A DNA stretch of 64,000 nt from Promethearchaeota archaeon (GTDB lineage Archaea; Asgardarchaeota; Lokiarchaeia; Sigyniarchaeales; SOKP01): positions 501,462 through 565,461 of the forward strand of contig JBHLNF010000002.1 in the NCBI GenBank assembly GCA_048937405.1, read 5' to 3'. Positions 40,346 through 51,840 of the stretch are shown in pieces. The notes beneath the pieces are model-generated. The model made no database searches. It was not told where the DNA came from and saw only the letters and a list, made by a program, of their open reading frames with translations. Made by a program: the position numbers and the translations under genes. The number at the start of each line of letters is the position of its first letter. Within the stretch, counting starts at the first letter, position 1.

Positions 40346-40903
40346 TTGTCTTATCGAGGAAAAGTAATCCTTTGTGGAGATGCAGGGGTTGGTAAAACTA
40401 GTTTATTAGCTCAATATGTTGATAATCAATTTAGTGATGAATATCACCAGACGATTGGGGCTAACTTCTTAATTAAAGAAATTGAATTAAGCAAAGTAAT
40501 TAATAAGTTAGAGTTAATAAATCCAAATTTAAAGAAAGATATTAAACAAAAGGGATTCAAATTATACTTTTGGGATATTGGAGGACAACAAGACAAATTA
40601 TTCAGCAACGAATATTATTTTGTTCAAGCTGTTGGAGCAATGGTTATTTTTAGCTTAGAGAGTACTTCATCATTTGAACAGTTAGATTTTTGGATTTCAA
40701 AGCTAAAAGAATTAAGTGGAGATATTCCATATATTATAGTTGGAAACAAAAAAGACCTTCCTAGAAAGATTAATGCAGATATGATAAATAATAAGGTTAA
40801 AGAATTAGGTGTTGAGTATTTTGAGACTTCTGCAAAACTGGATCAAAATGTCGATAAAGCATTTGAGGTTTTATCAATTCAAATTCTCAATAAATTTAAA
40901 TAA
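40346..40903 (+). CDS. Rab-like small GTPase
   Basis: GDAGVGKTS, TIG, WDIGGQ, NKKD, ETSAK; no C-terminal prenylation Cys. Confidence 0.92.
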   Translation: MSYRGKVILCGDAGVGKTSLLAQYVDNQFSDEYHQTIGANFLIKEIELSKVINKLELINPNLKKDIKQKGFKLYFWDIGGQQDKLFSNEYYFVQAVGAMVIFSLESTSSFEQLDFWISKLKELSGDIPYIIVGNKKDLPRKINADMINNKVKELGVEYFETSAKLDQNVDKAFEVLSIQILNKFK

Positions 40904-43122: not shown

Positions 43123-44412
43123 TTATTTTACTGCTTTAATAATCTTTCTACCATTCATGTATTGACGAAGAATTTCAGGTATTGTTATTGAATGGTCCTC
43201 ATTTTGAAAATTTTCAAGTATACAACAAATAGTACGTTCAGTAGCTATTGCAGTTGAATTTAATGTATGAATCGTCTCTTTAGCTTGCTGGATACCAACT
43301 TTTCCCATCCGAATTTTTAATTTTCTTGCTTGATAATCTAAGCAATTACTACATGATACTAATTCACGATAAGTTTCAGAAGCAGGAAACCATGCTTCTA
43401 AATCATATTTCTTTGCAGCATTATCATTTAATTCACCAGATGCTATGTTAACAATTCGATAAGGGATTTTTAATTCTTTAAATAGTTCTTCTGAATTTGA
43501 AATTAGTTCCTCAAAAAATTTCCATGAATCTGTTGGTTTACAGAAAATAAACTGTTCCACTTTTTCAAATCGATGAACTCTAAATATTCCTAGAGTATCT
43601 TTACCATGAGATCCTGCTTCTCTTCTAAAACATGAAGAAATACCAGCATATTTGATAGGCAAAATTTCAGGGTCAATAATTTCATTGTAATGATAAGCAG
43701 CTAATGTTTGTTCAGAGGTGGCAATCAAATATAGATCCTCATCTTGGATTTTATATAATTGTTCTTCAAAATCTGCTAATTCTGCAGCAGCTTTCATTAC
43801 CTCGTGCTTGGTAAAGAATGGAGTCCACATAGGAATATAATCTTTACTTATTAACTTGTCCAGCGCATATTTTAGAAGAGCTAAGTTTAATAAAACTAAA
43901 TCTCCCTTTAGATAGTAAAATCTTGACCCTGCTATTTCTGAAGCTTTTTTTAAGTCGGCTCCACTAATTCTAGAAATTAAATCTACATGAGAAAGTGGTT
44001 GAAAATCAAATTTAGGTATTTCTCCTATAATTTTTTCAATTTTATTCTCCTCCTCTGTCTTACCAAAAGGAACAGATTCATGTAAAATATTACCCACCAT
44101 ATAGCGATGTTTTTCTCGTAATTCCAAATATTCTCCTTTTGATTTTTCTAAGCTATCAATTCTCTCTTTAATTTCTTTTGATTTATTAATTGCATCTTCT
44201 GTTTTTTTGTCTTCTCTTAATTTTTTGAATTCCCCAATTTTAATTGAAATTTTATTTCTTTCTTTCCTTAATTCTTCAATCTCTTGTAAAGCATTCCTCC
44301 ATTTTGTATCAAATTCTAAAACTCTTTCGGCATTTGATGGATCTTTAAATCTTTTTTTCTCTGATTCAATAATTTCATTAATATTATTTCTAAATAGCTC
44401 AATATCAAGCAA
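43123..44412 (-). CDS. serS: Seryl-tRNA synthetase
   Basis: ATSEQ, FRREAG, GIFRVHRFEKVE, ELVSCSNCLDYQAR, TLNST. Confidence 0.97.
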   Translation of the reverse strand: MLDIELFRNNINEIIESEKKRFKDPSNAERVLEFDTKWRNALQEIEELRKERNKISIKIGEFKKLREDKKTEDAINKSKEIKERIDSLEKSKGEYLELREKHRYMVGNILHESVPFGKTEEENKIEKIIGEIPKFDFQPLSHVDLISRISGADLKKASEIAGSRFYYLKGDLVLLNLALLKYALDKLISKDYIPMWTPFFTKHEVMKAAAELADFEEQLYKIQDEDLYLIATSEQTLAAYHYNEIIDPEILPIKYAGISSCFRREAGSHGKDTLGIFRVHRFEKVEQFIFCKPTDSWKFFEELISNSEELFKELKIPYRIVNIASGELNDNAAKKYDLEAWFPASETYRELVSCSNCLDYQARKLKIRMGKVGIQQAKETIHTLNSTAIATERTICCILENFQNEDHSITIPEILRQYMNGRKIIKAVK

Positions 44413-44523
44413 AATTATATTCCTTTGATCAGTTTAGGATTATTGTTAATATTTTGGATTTAGATTAATTATATCTTTAAACACTTTGAAGATATTTTTA
44501 AATAATTTTTTTATAAATTGTTA

Positions 44524-44712
44524 TTATTCATGTTGAATTCGTTCAACTATTGTAGATCTAGCTAAAGCTGTTTTAACCTTCCTTTTATCATATCCAACCA
44601 TATCAATGATTTTCATAATTTTAATTCTTCTTGCTTTCCCTTTTAAACCTTCTTCAGCCATAAATTCTTTAGCAAAATCTTCTTTTTGTTTCTCTTCTTT
44701 TGACTCTGACAT
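44524..44712 (-). CDS. Small hypothetical protein
   Basis: 62-aa ATG ORF with protein-like composition, co-oriented with serS. Confidence 0.6.
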   Translation of the reverse strand: MSESKEEKQKEDFAKEFMAEEGLKGKARRIKIMKIIDMVGYDKRKVKTALARSTIVERIQHE

Positions 44713-44981
44713 ATTACTAAATAATTATTTTTTCAATAAAAAATTCACGAGAAGATCTTAAATCGATAATCAAAATTAAGGACAATCAACTAAAACCATC
44801 TTCTTTAAATCTAATATATAGAAATTTCTAATTTTTAGATAATTCTATTATCAAAATCAATATTATGAAAACTAATGAGAAAAAATAAATTATTTCTATA
44901 ATTTCTTTACGCAATAAGATTTAATGTTATATTTTGTATTAACTAAAAAGTATGGTGAAGATTTACAAAAAGGTGAAATAA

Positions 44982-46979
44982 TTGTCTGAAAGTCAGACCA
45001 CTGTTAGAATAGGAGTCTATGTATGCGAGTGAGGAGTAAATATTAAAGCCTCTGTTGATTGTGATGCTGTTAAAGATGCAATTGAGCATCTCCCAAATGT
45101 AGTAGTTGCCAAAGTAAATTCCTTTACGTGTTCCGATCCAGGACAAAATATAATCCGAAATGATATTCTGGAACAAGATTTAAATAGAGTAGTAGTAGCA
45201 GCATGTACACCAAAAATTCATGAACCTACCTATAGAGCAGTTTTAGTTGAAGCCGGAATAAGTCCATATTATTTTCAAATGGTCAATTTAAGAGAACAAT
45301 GCTCTTTTGTACATAGGGATGACCGACAAAAAGCTACAGAGAAAGCTATAAGATTAGTTAAAGCAGGAATTAATCGTGCTCGACAGTTAGAATTGGTACC
45401 CAGAAAAGAAATTCCCGTAGAAAGAGCTGTCTTAGTTGTGGGTGCAGGAATTGCAGGAATGAATGCTGCTTTAGATTTAGCTAATCAAGGAATACCTGTC
45501 TATCTAGTGGAAAAAGAAGCGACGATTGGTGGAAAAATGGCACAATTAGACAGAATATATCCAACGGATGATTGCGGTATATGAGTTTTAGCACCCATAA
45601 TGGTAAATGCATCAAAACATCCTAACATCAACTTATATACGTATAGTGATATTATTGAATTTAATGGCATCCCTGGGGATTATAATGTTAAAATAAGGAA
45701 AAATCCTCGATATGTTGATGAAAGCAAATGTACTGGATGTGGTTTATGTACAACTAAATGCCCAATAAAAGTACCTAGTGAGTTTGATAGAGGTATTGGT
45801 GAAAGAGGTGCTATATATATACCCTTTCCTCAGGCAGTTCCAAAATTAGCCGTTATGGATAGAAGTGTATGTATTGATTGTAAAACTTGTGAACGAACAT
45901 GTCCAGCTGAAGCAATTAGTTTTGAACAAGAAGCAGAATATATTGATGTAAAAGTCGGTGCAGTAATTATTGCTACTGGGTGGGACGAATATCCAATTTG
46001 GGAGTCTAATGAATATAACTATGGATATTATCCTGATGTAATAACCCAAATAGAATTAGAGAGAATGTTAAGTCCTATTGGGCCTACAGGAGGACATGTT
46101 TATCGTGTTTCTAATGGAGAAATACCAAATACTGTAGTAATAATTCAATGTGTAGGGTCTAGAGATATTAATGCTAATCCATATTGTTCTTTCGTTTGTT
46201 GTAATGTTTCACTTAAGAACGCCCAGCTCCTCAGACAGGAATATCCTGATATGGATGTAATAATGTTCTATATTGATATTCGAACTACAGATAAAGGAAA
46301 TGAGGAATATTATAGAAAAATTAGAGAGTCAGGTATAAGAATGATTAGGGGAAAAGTAGGTGAAATAATAGAAGATAAGGAAACAAATAAACTAAAAGTT
46401 AGAGCATATTCATCCTTAACTGGTGAAATTGTGAAGATTAATGCTGATTTAGTAGTATTATCAACAGGAATGATTCCTTCTAAAGGAACTGAAGAAATCA
46501 TCGAAGTATTGGGACTAAGTAAAGGACCTAGCGGTTTTCTTTCAGAAATCCATGGTTGTTTAAGCCCACAAGAAACAAAAGATATTGGAATTTATATTGC
46601 TGGATGTGCTGCTGGCCCAAAAAATATTCCATATTCAGTATCTTCCGCTTTAGCAGCTGCAAGTAAAGCATCTACTATATTATCTCATGATACAATAAAA
46701 CAGGAATTAATAATTGCTGAAGTAGATGAAGACCTTTGTATGGGATGTCATAGGTGTGAGAAACTATGCAACTATGGAGCAATAAAAGTCAATCAGAATG
46801 AAATTGCTGTGGTTGATGATTTAAAATGCAAGGGATGCGGTGTATGTATATCCTCTTGTCCAGCAAGAGCTATAGACTTGAAATATTATCGTGATAAGCA
46901 ATTTTCTCAAGAAATTAAGGGTATTAGTAGTAGCGAGTTAGGAACTGAGGAAAAGCTCACTGGGAGTATTGAAGAATAA
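44982..46979 (+). CDS. hdrA: Heterodisulfide reductase subunit A, selenoprotein with two Sec (665 aa)
   Basis: SD AGGTGA then TTG 44982; one frame: RIGVYVCE-TGA(45030-32)-GVNI...AACTP...NLREQCS...GAGIAG...PTDDCGI-TGA(45582-84)-VLAP..., ferredoxin motifs, QCVGSRD, AGPKNI. Joins ORF-track fragments 45279..45584 and 45600..46979. Confidence 0.93.
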
Positions 46980-47000
46980 ACACAATAGAGGCCATGAATA

Positions 47001-47429
47001 ATGAGTAAAATAAAAGATAATGGTACTAGAAATATAATTGCCTTTGGATGTGATAAATGAGGGTATTCTGCAGCAGATTTAACAGGCACTACAAGAAAAT
47101 CATATTCTACAGATTTTCATCTCATTAGAGTAAGGTGCACTGGTAGAATTGGAATTCATTTACTAATGGAAGCTTTATTAAATGGCGCAGATGGTGTCGC
47201 AATAATTTCTTGAAAAGAAGGAGAATGTGAATTTGGTAATGGTAATATAAATACTTATCAACATATTCTTACTTTGAAGAAATTGTTAAAACATGAAGGT
47301 ATTTCTGAAGATAGAGTTCAACAATATTTTTGTTCTGCTGCAGATGTTGAAAGATTCATAAATTCTGTTGAAGACATCTCCAAAAAAATTCACGCCCTCC
47401 CTCCTATACCAAAAAAAAATCCGAAATAG
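47001..47429 (+). CDS. mvhD: MvhD/VhuD [2Fe-2S] subunit, selenoprotein with two Sec (142 aa)
   Basis: Absent from the ORF track. MSKIKDNGTRNIIAFGCDK-TGA(47058-60)-GYSAADLTG...IRVRCTGRI...GADGVAIIS-TGA(47211-13)-KEGECEFGNGN...; TAG at 47427-29. Confidence 0.93.
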
Positions 47430-47490
47430 AATGATCTTTTCAAAAAAATTCTGGTTGAAAAGGAACTAACCCATTGCAAGGGTTTTCGGA
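47420..47490 (+). promoter_or_regulatory. Candidate SECIS element (eukaryote-like AUGA/GA core, A-rich apical loop)
   Basis: ATGA at 47431-34, stem CTTTTCAA/TTGAAAAG, loop AAAAATTCTGG, GA at 47463-64; enclosed by TCCGAAA/TTTCGGA, with side hairpin AACCC/GGGTT. Confidence 0.6.
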
Positions 47491-47518
47491 ATAATTTGAA
47501 TTTAATAAAATAATATGT

Positions 47519-49018
47519 ATGAATATGAGCCTTGAAGAAAACTATTCATGGGAATTTCTGAAGAATGTAGCGGATGCTTTAGATTCATATCGAATTCGAG
47601 CATTAATTGATGCGAAACAAGATATTTTAGATGCTGGAATTTATGATGAAACTCAATATGAATTTATTCTTCTTACTATGTTAGATGAAGAAAAATCCAA
47701 ATATTCACTATTTAATTTTTTAAAAGAAAATTCAGAAAGTAATCTTAATACTCTTATTAACTATTCAGAACATAATAGTATTGATTTAAATAAGACTTTG
47801 AGCTTGTTAGAATTGCTCAAAAATGAAAAACTTGTAATTGTAGAAGAAATCAATGAAAAAATTGAAGGAGATGAAAATACGCCAGAAAAACTCATATTTC
47901 AAGACTTTTTAATTACTCCTAATGATATCGAGATATCAAAATTAAAACCAATATATGAGCCTGTAAAGGTAATTTTTGATTCTAAAATCTGCTCAGGTTG
48001 TGGTTTATGTGCTGGAATCTGTCCAGTAAATTGCCTACAAATATATAATGGTTTCGGAAAAATTGATGAAGATAAATGCATACGTTGCGGATTATGTTAT
48101 TTTGTGTGTCCTAGAACATATCTCCCAGAAAGATTATTAAATATGACTCAAGAAAATTCTACTGAAATTAAAGAATATTCGAAAGTAGGACATTTTCTTG
48201 AAGCGTATTCAGCAAGGACAAAGATCAAAGACATTTCAGATATATGCCAAGATGGAGGGATTTCAAGTACTTGCATCCATTATCTTTTTGATAGTAAGAA
48301 AATTGATTTTGCATTAGGAGCGAAAATGAGCAATACTTTATGGCGTCCAGAACCAATTTTACTCAAAAACAAAGAAGAAATCGTTTCTACTGCAGGAACT
48401 AAATATGTAAATAATCCTAATTTACAAATACTTAACCTACCCGAGCTTAAGAGTAAAAAAATTGCTGTAGTAGGCGTACCTTGTCAAATGCAAGCACTTC
48501 TAAAATCCAAAATTTATAATATCGGATTCCCATCCTTAAATAATATCGAATATAGAATTGGAATATTTTGCATGGAATCATTTTCTTATGAATCGCTTTT
48601 AAAAATCTGTGAAAAAGCAAAGGTCGATATTAAAAATGTTAAAAAGATGGATATCAATAAAGGAAAATTTTTTATCTATACGAATAAAGGAGATGAATTA
48701 AGTGTGCCTATTAAAGAAATCTCTCATTTAGCTCGAGAAGACTGTAAGATATGTTATGATTTAACTTCGGAATCAGCTGATATTTCAATTGGATCTATAG
48801 GATCTCCCTCAGGATGGAATACCGTACTTATTAGAACTGAAAAAGGTAAAGAACTTTATAATGAACTAATTAATAATAAGTTAATTGAATCCAAACCGAT
48901 AGCAGATGTGAAACCTGGCTTACCACTTTTGCAAAGAATCGCGGGTTCCAAGAAAAATACGAGCAAAAAGCACATTAATTCAAAAATGGAAGAAAACAAA
49001 AGAATTCCATATTATTAA
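47519..49018 (+). CDS. FrhB-family (coenzyme F420 hydrogenase/dehydrogenase beta) protein with 2x[4Fe-4S] domain and N-terminal extension
   Basis: CSGCGLCAGICP, CIRCGLCYFVCP, QDGG, GTKY, VGVPCQ, IGIFCMESF, CKICYD, ADISIGSIGS. Confidence 0.9.
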   Translation: MNMSLEENYSWEFLKNVADALDSYRIRALIDAKQDILDAGIYDETQYEFILLTMLDEEKSKYSLFNFLKENSESNLNTLINYSEHNSIDLNKTLSLLELLKNEKLVIVEEINEKIEGDENTPEKLIFQDFLITPNDIEISKLKPIYEPVKVIFDSKICSGCGLCAGICPVNCLQIYNGFGKIDEDKCIRCGLCYFVCPRTYLPERLLNMTQENSTEIKEYSKVGHFLEAYSARTKIKDISDICQDGGISSTCIHYLFDSKKIDFALGAKMSNTLWRPEPILLKNKEEIVSTAGTKYVNNPNLQILNLPELKSKKIAVVGVPCQMQALLKSKIYNIGFPSLNNIEYRIGIFCMESFSYESLLKICEKAKVDIKNVKKMDINKGKFFIYTNKGDELSVPIKEISHLAREDCKICYDLTSESADISIGSIGSPSGWNTVLIRTEKGKELYNELINNKLIESKPIADVKPGLPLLQRIAGSKKNTSKKHINSKMEENKRIPYY

Positions 49019-49548: not shown

Positions 49549-50295
49549 GTGCTTCAACCTGTCGTTTTTCTCTTGATTTATACAGTAATTATTCTAATTT
49601 TCAAGATATCGTTAAAATCCTTAGAATTTAAGGTATTAACACTAATGGTGATAGGATATGTATATTTATTACCAGTTGTCACATTCGGACTTATATTGGC
49701 TCCAATTGATGATCCTAGTATCCCTTATACCATTTTTTCTTTGGGAACGGGAATAGGACTAGTTTTATTTATCTTTTTTTATGTAATAAGGATCATAAAA
49801 AATTATTCAAATCTTGCGGGGGAGGTCTCCTCTATGGCAACGGAGTTGGCTTCCAGTTCTGAAGAAGTTACTTCCGCATCCGAAGAAATAAGTTCAACTG
49901 TAAACAGTGTACTCGAGAATGGGAGAGCTATGAAAAATTCCTCCGATTACATCAATAAAATACTCCAACTTATCATAGAGATTTCCGATCAAACGAATTT
50001 ACTCGCCCTCAATGCCAAAATCGAAGCTAGTCGAGCAGGGGAAAACGGGAGAGGATTTGCTGCTGTAGCGGACGAGGTGAGAAAACTTGCAACCGAGACA
50101 AAAGCAGCTCTTTCTGATTCTAACACAAAAATTAACGAAATATTGTCCCAAATCGAGTATCAATTTGAGTCACTCTTAGCGGTTACGTCTGCTACTGAAG
50201 AGCAAGCGAGTACTATGGAACAAGTGTCCTCTACGGCAAACCAGTTGGATTCATTAGCTATTAAGTTGAGTGGTAAGTTTAAAAAAAGAGTATAG
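49549..50295 (+). CDS. Methyl-accepting chemotaxis-like membrane protein
   Basis: [37 protein letters not shown] signalling hairpin; N-terminal TM helices; 5' end possibly frameshifted. Confidence 0.9.
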
Positions 50296-51447: not shown

Positions 51448-51840
51448 ATGAGTAAAGATATTAAATGGGCAATTGTACATATTTTCAGTTCTTACAATAA
51501 TACCATTGTAACCGCTACAGATCTCAGCGGTGCGGAAACTTTCGCAAAATGTTCAGGCGGTATGGTTGTTAAAGCTGATCGAGATGAATCAAATCCTTAT
51601 GCTGGAATGCAAGCAGGATTCCGTGTTGCTAATGAACTCAGAGATAAAGGTATCACAGGTATACATATCAAAGTTAGAGCACCTGGGGGAAATAAATCAC
51701 AAACTCCTGGTCCAGGTGCCCAAGCATGCATCCGAGCGCTCGCCCGTTCAGGACTTCAAGTAGGTAAGATTGAAGAAGTCACTCCTAAATCACATGATCA
51801 CTGCCGTAGAAAAGGTGGGCATAGGGGTCGTCGTGTGTGA
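51448..51840 (+). CDS. rps11: 30S ribosomal protein uS11
   Basis: [25 protein letters not shown]. Confidence 0.97.

Follow-up and report, generated by a model that had tools for sequence, protein, structure and literature searches.

Multi-selenocysteine gene pairs of the type analysed here are known from Lokiarchaeota, for which the available portion of the original report describes an HdrA with several selenocysteine (Sec) residues (as many as four, distributed over five positions) followed in tandem by a two-Sec VhuD, an hdrA stop codon of UAA or UAG, and one lokiSECIS element behind VhuD, which would act on as many as six UGA codons across about 2 kb (Mariotti 2016, PMC4989117). The same arrangement is included in a catalogue of 1439 Asgard selenoproteins, the accessible text of which also reports an AUGA_AA SECIS core for the hdrA/frhD genes of Lokiarchaeia (Huang 2024, PMC11227280). 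As stated in the accessible parts of both papers, SBP2 is absent from Asgard archaea (PMC4989117, PMC11227280). The HdrA-VhuD pair with a shared SECIS in Lokiarchaeota is already known, having been published in 2016 and catalogued in 2024 (PMC4989117, PMC11227280). In the Hdr-Vhu-Fwd assembly of Methanococcus maripaludis (9sfi), Sec197 of HdrA pairs with a Cys, the two residues being located between FAD and A3, the N-terminal [4Fe-4S] cluster (PMC13518236), while in the Cys enzyme Cys197 ligates the N-terminal cluster and is donated by the partner protomer (PMC9012536).

The gene pair described here was identified within a window of 64,000 nucleotides (the whole stretch of DNA analysed) of a Promethearchaeota archaeon (assembly GCA_048937405.1, contig JBHLNF010000002.1, positions 501,462 to 565,461). 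Nothing essential differs between this locus and the Loki HdrA-VhuD pairs, both having hdrA and vhuD in tandem on the same strand with a very short spacer, an hdrA ending with UAA or UAG, a multi-Sec HdrA including the canonical position near 200, two Sec in VhuD, one SECIS directly behind vhuD (AUGA with the AUGA_AA variant of the core, a stem of 9 bp, and an A-rich loop of 11 nt whose last base is G), and a tRNA-Sec with a T-loop intron at about 6 kb from EFSec. The use of Sec in Lokiarchaeota, mentioned in the initial annotation of this DNA, is borne out by PMC4989117, the available text of which describes exactly such a multi-Sec HdrA-VhuD pair with a shared SECIS. Based on the sequence comparisons given below, hdrA and mvhD of this Lokiarchaeial (Promethearchaeia) genome are very probably functional genes for selenoproteins, with UGA codons that are read as Sec through a shared lokiSECIS (a probability of about 0.93 for either statement). 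The features of the locus and of the Sec machinery are listed in Table 1.

Table 1. Predicted features of the hdrA-mvhD locus (positions within the window) and genes for Sec synthesis and decoding elsewhere in the genome (prefix C)
Feature	Position	Strand	Description
hdrA	44982-46979	+	665 codons; TTG start; TAA stop 46977-46979; frame 1 with TGA=U; predicted selenoprotein gene
hdrA UGA, predicted Sec17	45030-45032	+	N-terminal C-x-U-G motif; context VCE-U-G
hdrA UGA, predicted Sec201	45582-45584	+	canonical HdrA Sec position, D-C-x-x-U; context DCGI-U
mvhD/vhuD	47001-47429	+	142 codons; ATG 47001; TAG 47427-47429; predicted selenoprotein gene
mvhD UGA, predicted Sec20	47058-47060	+	C-x-x-U-G-Y; context GCDK-U-GY
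mvhD UGA, predicted Sec71	47211-47213	+	U-x-x-G-x-C; context IS-U-KEGEC
lokiSECIS core	47431-47465	+	AUGA; 9-bp stem 47435-47443 with 47455-47463; 11-nt loop AAAAAUUCUGG; then AA
Probable extended SECIS	47420-47490	+	three helices: outer, core hairpin, small 3' hairpin
Outer helix	47420-47426 with 47484-47490		UCCGAAA (last mvhD codons) with UUUCGGA; encloses core hairpin and 3' hairpin
Small 3' hairpin	47469-47472 with 47480-47483		within outer helix
frhB/fdhB-like gene	47519-49018	+	PF04432, PF04422, Fer4; 2x[4Fe-4S] ferredoxin domain; no in-frame TGA
SPS	C18		185 bits; one in-frame TGA (Sec-containing)
SepSecS	C7:230803-231960		377 bits
PSTK	C28		120 bits
EFSec	C7:223955-224791	-	232 bits
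tRNA-Sec	C7:230424-230577		two introns; directly upstream of SepSecS

After retranslation with TGA as U, neither a frameshift nor a TAA or TAG stop was detected across the 807 codons of hdrA and mvhD, in agreement with the initial annotation, whose coordinates (45030, 45582, 47058 and 47211) and sequence contexts for the four in-frame TGAs were all correct. The TTG start of hdrA is preceded by GGTGA, located seven bases 5' of it. The spacer between the hdrA stop and the mvhD start is 21 nt in length, and a fifth TGA in the same frame, at 46995, falls inside this spacer and is noncoding. In the list of open reading frames made with genetic code table 11, hdrA appears in two pieces (45279-45584 and 45600-46979), as had been pointed out; mvhD, which was said to be missed entirely, is represented in this list by a 51-aa tail only.

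The identity of both proteins was examined by comparison with solved structures, for which Sec was written as Cys in the HdrA query. Residues 8-651 of HdrA aligned to residues 4-652 of 9sfi_A (728 bits, E 5.9e-218), and the solved chain 5odc_A was matched with an E value of 1.3e-207. The domain set of HdrA is present in full length, including the N-terminal Fe-S domain, the thioredoxin-reductase-like FAD domain and the inserted and C-terminal ferredoxin domains, and the Pfam domains detected were Fer4, FAD-binding and Pyr_redox. MvhD was assigned to PF02662 (FlpD) with 125.3 bits (cut-off, 22.3), covering profile positions 1-122 of 123, and matched the solved MvhD/VhuD chains 5odc_D and 9sfi_K. 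In HdrA, U17 corresponds to Cys13 of 5odc_A and is likewise matched by Cys in 9sfi_A, and the counterparts of U201 are X197 (9sfi_A) and Cys197 (5odc_A). In MvhD, U20 is aligned with X of 9sfi_K and Cys16 of 5odc_D, and U71 with the second X of 9sfi_K and Cys67 of 5odc_D. The proposed location of the TGAs at Cys positions of the family is thus confirmed for all four by 5odc, and three of them fall on X in 9sfi. HdrA and VhuD are established selenoproteins in Methanococcales and Methanopyrus, as the initial annotation had noted. Three of the four predicted Sec sites (U201, U20 and U71) are the classical methanococcal Sec positions, the predicted Sec201 being the equivalent of Sec197 of Methanococcus HdrA, and U17 is an extra one, which belongs to the Cys motif (C-x-C-G) of the N-terminal cluster domain.

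The HdrA and VhuD chains of M. maripaludis (9sfi) align end to end with the proteins encoded here, with Sec201, Sec20 and Sec71 on Sec positions. In contrast, the methanococcal HdrA contains one Sec and has Cys where Sec17 stands here; the methanococcal SECIS is of the GAA_A-bulge type with one element per gene, whereas here one lokiSECIS is found for the pair; and the methanococcal enzyme serves methanogenesis together with HdrBC and the VhuAGU hydrogenase, while this organism is not a methanogen and has an FrhB-like gene next to the pair.

In a family-level genome search, HdrA was found in all 41 genomes, and the relatives of the HdrA copy under study are encoded by MAGs of Promethearchaeota or Promethearchaeia, including Loki_b32. 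The number of in-frame TGAs was two or three in every ortholog of this copy (66-89% protein identity). The family also includes HdrA paralogs of the Cys type, which lack TGA. For the comparison of codons, a total of 30 orthologous loci from 13 genera were aligned. TGA was present in 30 of 30 loci at HdrA position 17, HdrA position 201 and MvhD position 20, and in 25 of 30 at MvhD position 71, where the remaining five have a Cys codon. The reverse distribution was observed at HdrA position 75, with TGA in three loci and Cys in 27. Exchange between Sec and Cys at one alignment column is the usual signature of selenoproteins. A chance origin of the four TGAs is excluded, because they are located on Cys columns of the family and, depending on the site, recur as TGA in 25 to 30 of the 30 orthologs. 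The hdrA stop codon was TAA or TAG in all of these 30 loci and also in all of the 50 further loci in which mvhD was found.

The initial annotation had named TGY codons in the raw reads as evidence that would speak against recoding; in the independent assemblies and the 30 orthologs, the TGA codons are kept. Contigs assembled from runs of three studies span the four TGA sites, each of these contigs being short and none covering the whole stretch, and an altered TGA was not observed at the four sites among the differences listed for them. Several contigs, for instance X1 records 1, 3 and 8 and X3 record 24, showed no difference over the sites. Among the public runs listed for this locus, none was an RNA run.

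The predicted lokiSECIS starts 2 nt 3' of the mvhD stop codon and carries every feature published for lokiSECIS, with AA at the 3' side of the core, where GA is canonical; its A-rich 11-nt loop shows AAAAA at the start and G at the end. By a relaxed scan of 44700-47600, no second A-rich SECIS candidate was detected. A strict scan of the entire genome for the lokiSECIS pattern gave eight matches, versus two in a Markov-simulated genome, and all eight are located directly 3' of open reading frames with in-frame TGA. Besides this locus, the matches include three further HdrA copies, two of them with VhuD next, and also VhuU, a peroxiredoxin-like protein PrxL (W-U-x-x-C), a 158-aa protein with U-U and an 82-aa membrane protein with G-G-U-G-C.

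A SECIS was detected at the same place in 27 orthologous loci, all of which retain AUGA, AAA and the G that closes the loop; three other loci (L032, L039 and L042), which misfit the fixed-length SECIS pattern, were excluded from the alignment (A1). Within the stem of these 27 orthologs 94% of the cells were paired, a percentage biased upward by the choice of ortholog sites with a score that rewards pairing, and double changes were found at all nine pairs. None of 500 shuffles was as good in covariation, and the slid controls paired at 38-62%. The first pair of the stem is often unpaired in the orthologs. As a single sequence, the element folded no better than shuffled sequence (z = 0.31); the support for the predicted SECIS is comparative. 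The search with cmscan of 44500-48000 gave no match to the Rfam SECIS families at E <= 10. The element shares with the eukaryotic SECIS (kink-turn, RF00031) the AUGA core before the upper helix, the adenines at the start of the apical loop, the location 3' of the coding sequence and the predicted distant action on several UGAs. It differs from the eukaryotic SECIS in the shorter upper helix (9 bp), in AA instead of the 3' GA and in its place within a prokaryotic gene pair, behind the second cistron. Its mode of action would resemble that of a eukaryotic SECIS, yet the element stands outside the Rfam SECIS model.

As to the machinery for Sec synthesis and decoding, the search proposed in the initial annotation detected all of tRNA-Sec, SPS, PSTK, SepSecS and EFSec in this genome (Table 1). 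The gene for tRNA-Sec lies on the strand opposite to EFSec at a distance of about 6 kb, a layout known from Loki, and as read here its D arm is interrupted by 34 nt and its T loop by about 30 nt. With splice points set manually to allow closure of the cloverleaf, the spliced tRNA-Sec is 90 nt in length, and its MFE fold shows a 9-bp acceptor stem, a 7-bp D stem (UGGU loop) and a 4-bp T stem, together with a UCA anticodon in the anticodon loop CUUCAAA, a long variable arm and the discriminator G. This gene was found by a permissive Rfam search (C7:230459-230565, 23.9 bits, E = 0.04 genome-wide), the score being below the cut-off of 47 bits because of the introns, and it was missed by Rfam at the gathering level. 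ARAGORN, with and without the intron mode, detected only 14 tRNAs genome-wide and no tRNA-Sec. Three motif scans for an uninterrupted GC-rich tRNA-Sec also failed to find one, because the D-arm intron lowers the local GC content. Two other candidates were rejected, a GC-island near EFSec, which is coding sequence, and a T-arm-like match at C7:233111, which belongs to another intron-rich tRNA.

For this gene pair we propose that hdrA and mvhD would be transcribed together, that EFSec carrying Sec-tRNA(Sec) would decode the four UGA codons as selenocysteine, and that one eukaryote-like lokiSECIS 3' of mvhD would direct all four decoding events, acting over 0.2 to 2.4 kb. The breakage of the frames at four points under table 11 could also be taken as a sign that hdrA and mvhD are decaying pseudogenes or that the TGAs are errors of sequencing or assembly. 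The lack of any frameshift, TAA or TAG in 807 codons, the location of all four TGAs on Cys columns, the presence of TGA at the same codons in 25 to 30 of the 30 orthologs, which come from different MAGs, and the identity over the sites of contigs from independent runs (e.g. X1 records 1, 3 and 8; X3 record 24) leave a negligible probability for this explanation, which the ortholog comparison has already refuted. TGA terminates 266 of the 1822 long open frames in the genome, and the gene for uS11 (51448-51840) ends with GRRV-TGA, so that TGA is a true stop elsewhere, as the initial annotation had noted for uS11. These ordinary stops are hard to reconcile with a genome-wide reassignment of TGA to a standard amino acid (Trp, Gly or Cys), for which the Sec machinery would be unneeded. 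Some uncultured archaea and bacteria do reassign TGA, and stop-codon recoding has reportedly been observed in Asgard lineages. In this genome, however, the in-frame TGAs are limited to a few genes, each with a SECIS behind, and the Sec pathway is complete, its tRNA having the UCA anticodon and the Sec-type 9/4 fold, and genome-wide reassignment is considered very improbable. The earlier proposal of site-specific UGA-to-Sec recoding, being neither decay nor reassignment of the code, is supported by the Cys/Sec columns, the Sec machinery, the TGAs of the orthologs and the ordinary TGA stops.

Recoding may also be real but incomplete, a sizeable share of the ribosomes terminating or inserting Cys, especially at Sec17, 2.4 kb from the SECIS, with the four-Sec complex being minor or selenium-dependent. 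The presence of TGA at position 17 in 30 of 30 orthologs argues for productive decoding, and we judge incomplete recoding to be improbable, even though SECIS action at such a distance and across a cistron boundary is called "unparalleled" in the available text of Mariotti et al. (PMC4989117), and the Cys-type HdrA paralogs could take over without selenium, a role that Vhc plays for Vhu in Methanococcus (PMC13518236). Decoding of all four UGAs as Sec under the control of the shared lokiSECIS is the preferred reading.

The SECIS may extend beyond the core hairpin. In 42 orthologs the conserved region reaches from 47420 to 47490, and parts of all three helices (Table 1) were predicted by RNAalifold for these sequences. 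The outer helix is nearly invariant, the covariation being limited to the end pairs. The Pro codon CCG within this helix is kept at the site in more than 90%, as compared with 5% of the Pro codons genome-wide. Among the other SECIS elements of the genome, those of PrxL, the G-G-U-G-C protein and two HdrA genes permit the same layout with other helix sequences, as read by eye, and a constrained fold closed the outer helix in three of the eight elements, i.e. those of PrxL, the 4-Sec HdrA/VhuD pair and this locus. For the SECIS elements of VhuU and the U-U protein, neither a clear outer helix nor shuffle support was obtained. The shuffle test of the outer helix with the single element of this locus gave 124 of 2000 shuffles, which is weak alone. 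It is conceivable, and somewhat doubtful, that the SECIS is a three-way junction of 47420-47490 and not the published simple hairpin. Its closing helix would then be made up of the final sense codons of mvhD, among them a rare CCG codon retained for the sake of the RNA structure, and a conserved side hairpin would stand on the 3' side. The initial annotation makes no mention of a SECIS, yet the region that it marked stops at 47490, which is also where the extended element ends.

The products of hdrA and mvhD likely form a flavin-based electron-bifurcating HdrA core with MvhD as a [2Fe-2S] adaptor. Of the 80 related loci searched, 48 have the frhB-like gene immediately behind mvhD and the SECIS. 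A hydrogenase gene is absent from the HdrA-MvhD-FrhB-like cluster; a CofC-like gene is located 3 kb upstream, and cofH and cofE are present in the genome as well. The gene order suggests that the electron partner is F420H2 or a similar cofactor, replacing hydrogenase, and on the same basis a module of HdrA, MvhD and FrhB linked to F420 is plausible.

In the available text of PMC4989117 and PMC11227280, no mention was found of a D-arm intron as the second one of tRNA-Sec, of an outer helix and a 3' side hairpin of the SECIS, or of a conserved frhB-like gene behind the SECIS. What this locus adds is the tentative three-helix form of the SECIS, the two-intron tRNA-Sec and the conserved HdrA-MvhD-FrhB-like order. 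The locus illustrates clearly that selenoprotein genes of Asgard archaea are cut short or overlooked by standard gene calling, and that their correct annotation requires UGA-aware calling, a SECIS scan and an intron-tolerant search for tRNA-Sec. If hdrA, mvhD and the frhB-like gene share one transcript, the SECIS is intercistronic, and each ribosome finishing mvhD would then need to melt the base of the SECIS, which could time or limit the upstream Sec decoding. As judged solely from gene order, the HdrA-MvhD-FrhB-like arrangement points to an F420-linked bifurcating complex.

Further HdrA copies with in-frame TGA codons elsewhere in the source genome include the three listed in the table. The copy at C19:133329-135320 is followed by its own lokiSECIS (C19:133272), which begins 14 nt past the hdrA stop, and is not accompanied by a separate vhuD. 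This HdrA is an exception to the rule of constant hdrA-vhuD pairing. On the same contig, the HdrA of C19:205523-207600 shows a change of reading frame past about 124 codons, and VhuD comes next. For the third copy, located on C28, the strict SECIS pattern (9-bp stem, 11-nt loop) gave no match, and therefore its SECIS probably departs from this form. Four other lokiSECIS matches in the genome were located behind UGA-containing ORFs; in the case of VhuU, the UGA stop forms part of the SECIS AUGA.

Features within the window and elsewhere in the source genome (contigs C7, C16, C19 and C28); U, in-frame TGA read as Sec
Feature	Position	Strand	Remark
HdrA paralog	C19:133329-135320	-	682 codons, two TGAs; close paralog, 75% identity
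HdrA	C19:205523-207600	-	four in-frame TGAs; SECIS at C19:205046
HdrA paralog	C28:493985-495916	+	three in-frame TGAs; 5.5 kb ahead of window start
158-aa protein	lokiSECIS C7:547321		adjacent U-U
Prx-like protein	lokiSECIS C7:839657		W-U-x-x-C
VhuU	lokiSECIS C16:26673	-	
82-aa membrane protein	lokiSECIS C19:95112		G-G-U-G-C
tRNA-Sec	C7:230424-230577 (425-578 of L021, the extracted C7 piece)	+	outside window
tRNA-like stretch, ~190 nt	C7:233100-233290 (L021:3100-3290)	-	acceptor-like closure, T arm
Seryl-tRNA synthetase	window 43123-44412	-	divergent from hdrA, ~570 nt upstream
Ras/Roc-family small GTPase	window 40346-40903	+	129 bits
Short MCP-signal-domain protein	window 49549-50295	+	

Within the window, the gene divergent from hdrA encodes seryl-tRNA synthetase, which attaches serine to tRNA-Sec, and this arrangement may be a coincidence. 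The hdrA-mvhD cluster is also flanked, one on either side, by the MCP-signal-domain protein and the Ras/Roc-family GTPase, a member of a family known as a hallmark of Asgard genomes.

Two related loci, L093 and L129, with HdrA 72-78% identical, both belong to DATKTW01, a MAG titled Candidatus Nanopelagicaceae bacterium (an actinobacterium). Further related loci were found in records labelled Odin-, Thor-, Hermod- or Hodarchaeota. The records under all these titles are probably either mislabelled Lokiarchaeial contigs or contaminated with them.

Two inserts interrupt the tRNA-Sec gene, a D-arm insert of about 34 nt and a T-loop insert of about 30 nt; the gene was not called by ARAGORN and scored only 23.9 bits against Rfam RF01852. 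The published description of the Loki tRNA-Sec gives a T-loop intron only, whereas the gene identified here carries the D-arm insert as well. Although the genome is rated 100% complete, ARAGORN detected only 14 tRNA genes in the whole genome, intron mode included. The tRNA-like stretch on C7, called by none of the tools, combines a 7-bp acceptor-like closure (GGGCCAU...AUGGCCC) with a perfect T arm, and is probably a multi-intron tRNA. The majority of tRNAs in this genome are probably interrupted at non-canonical positions.
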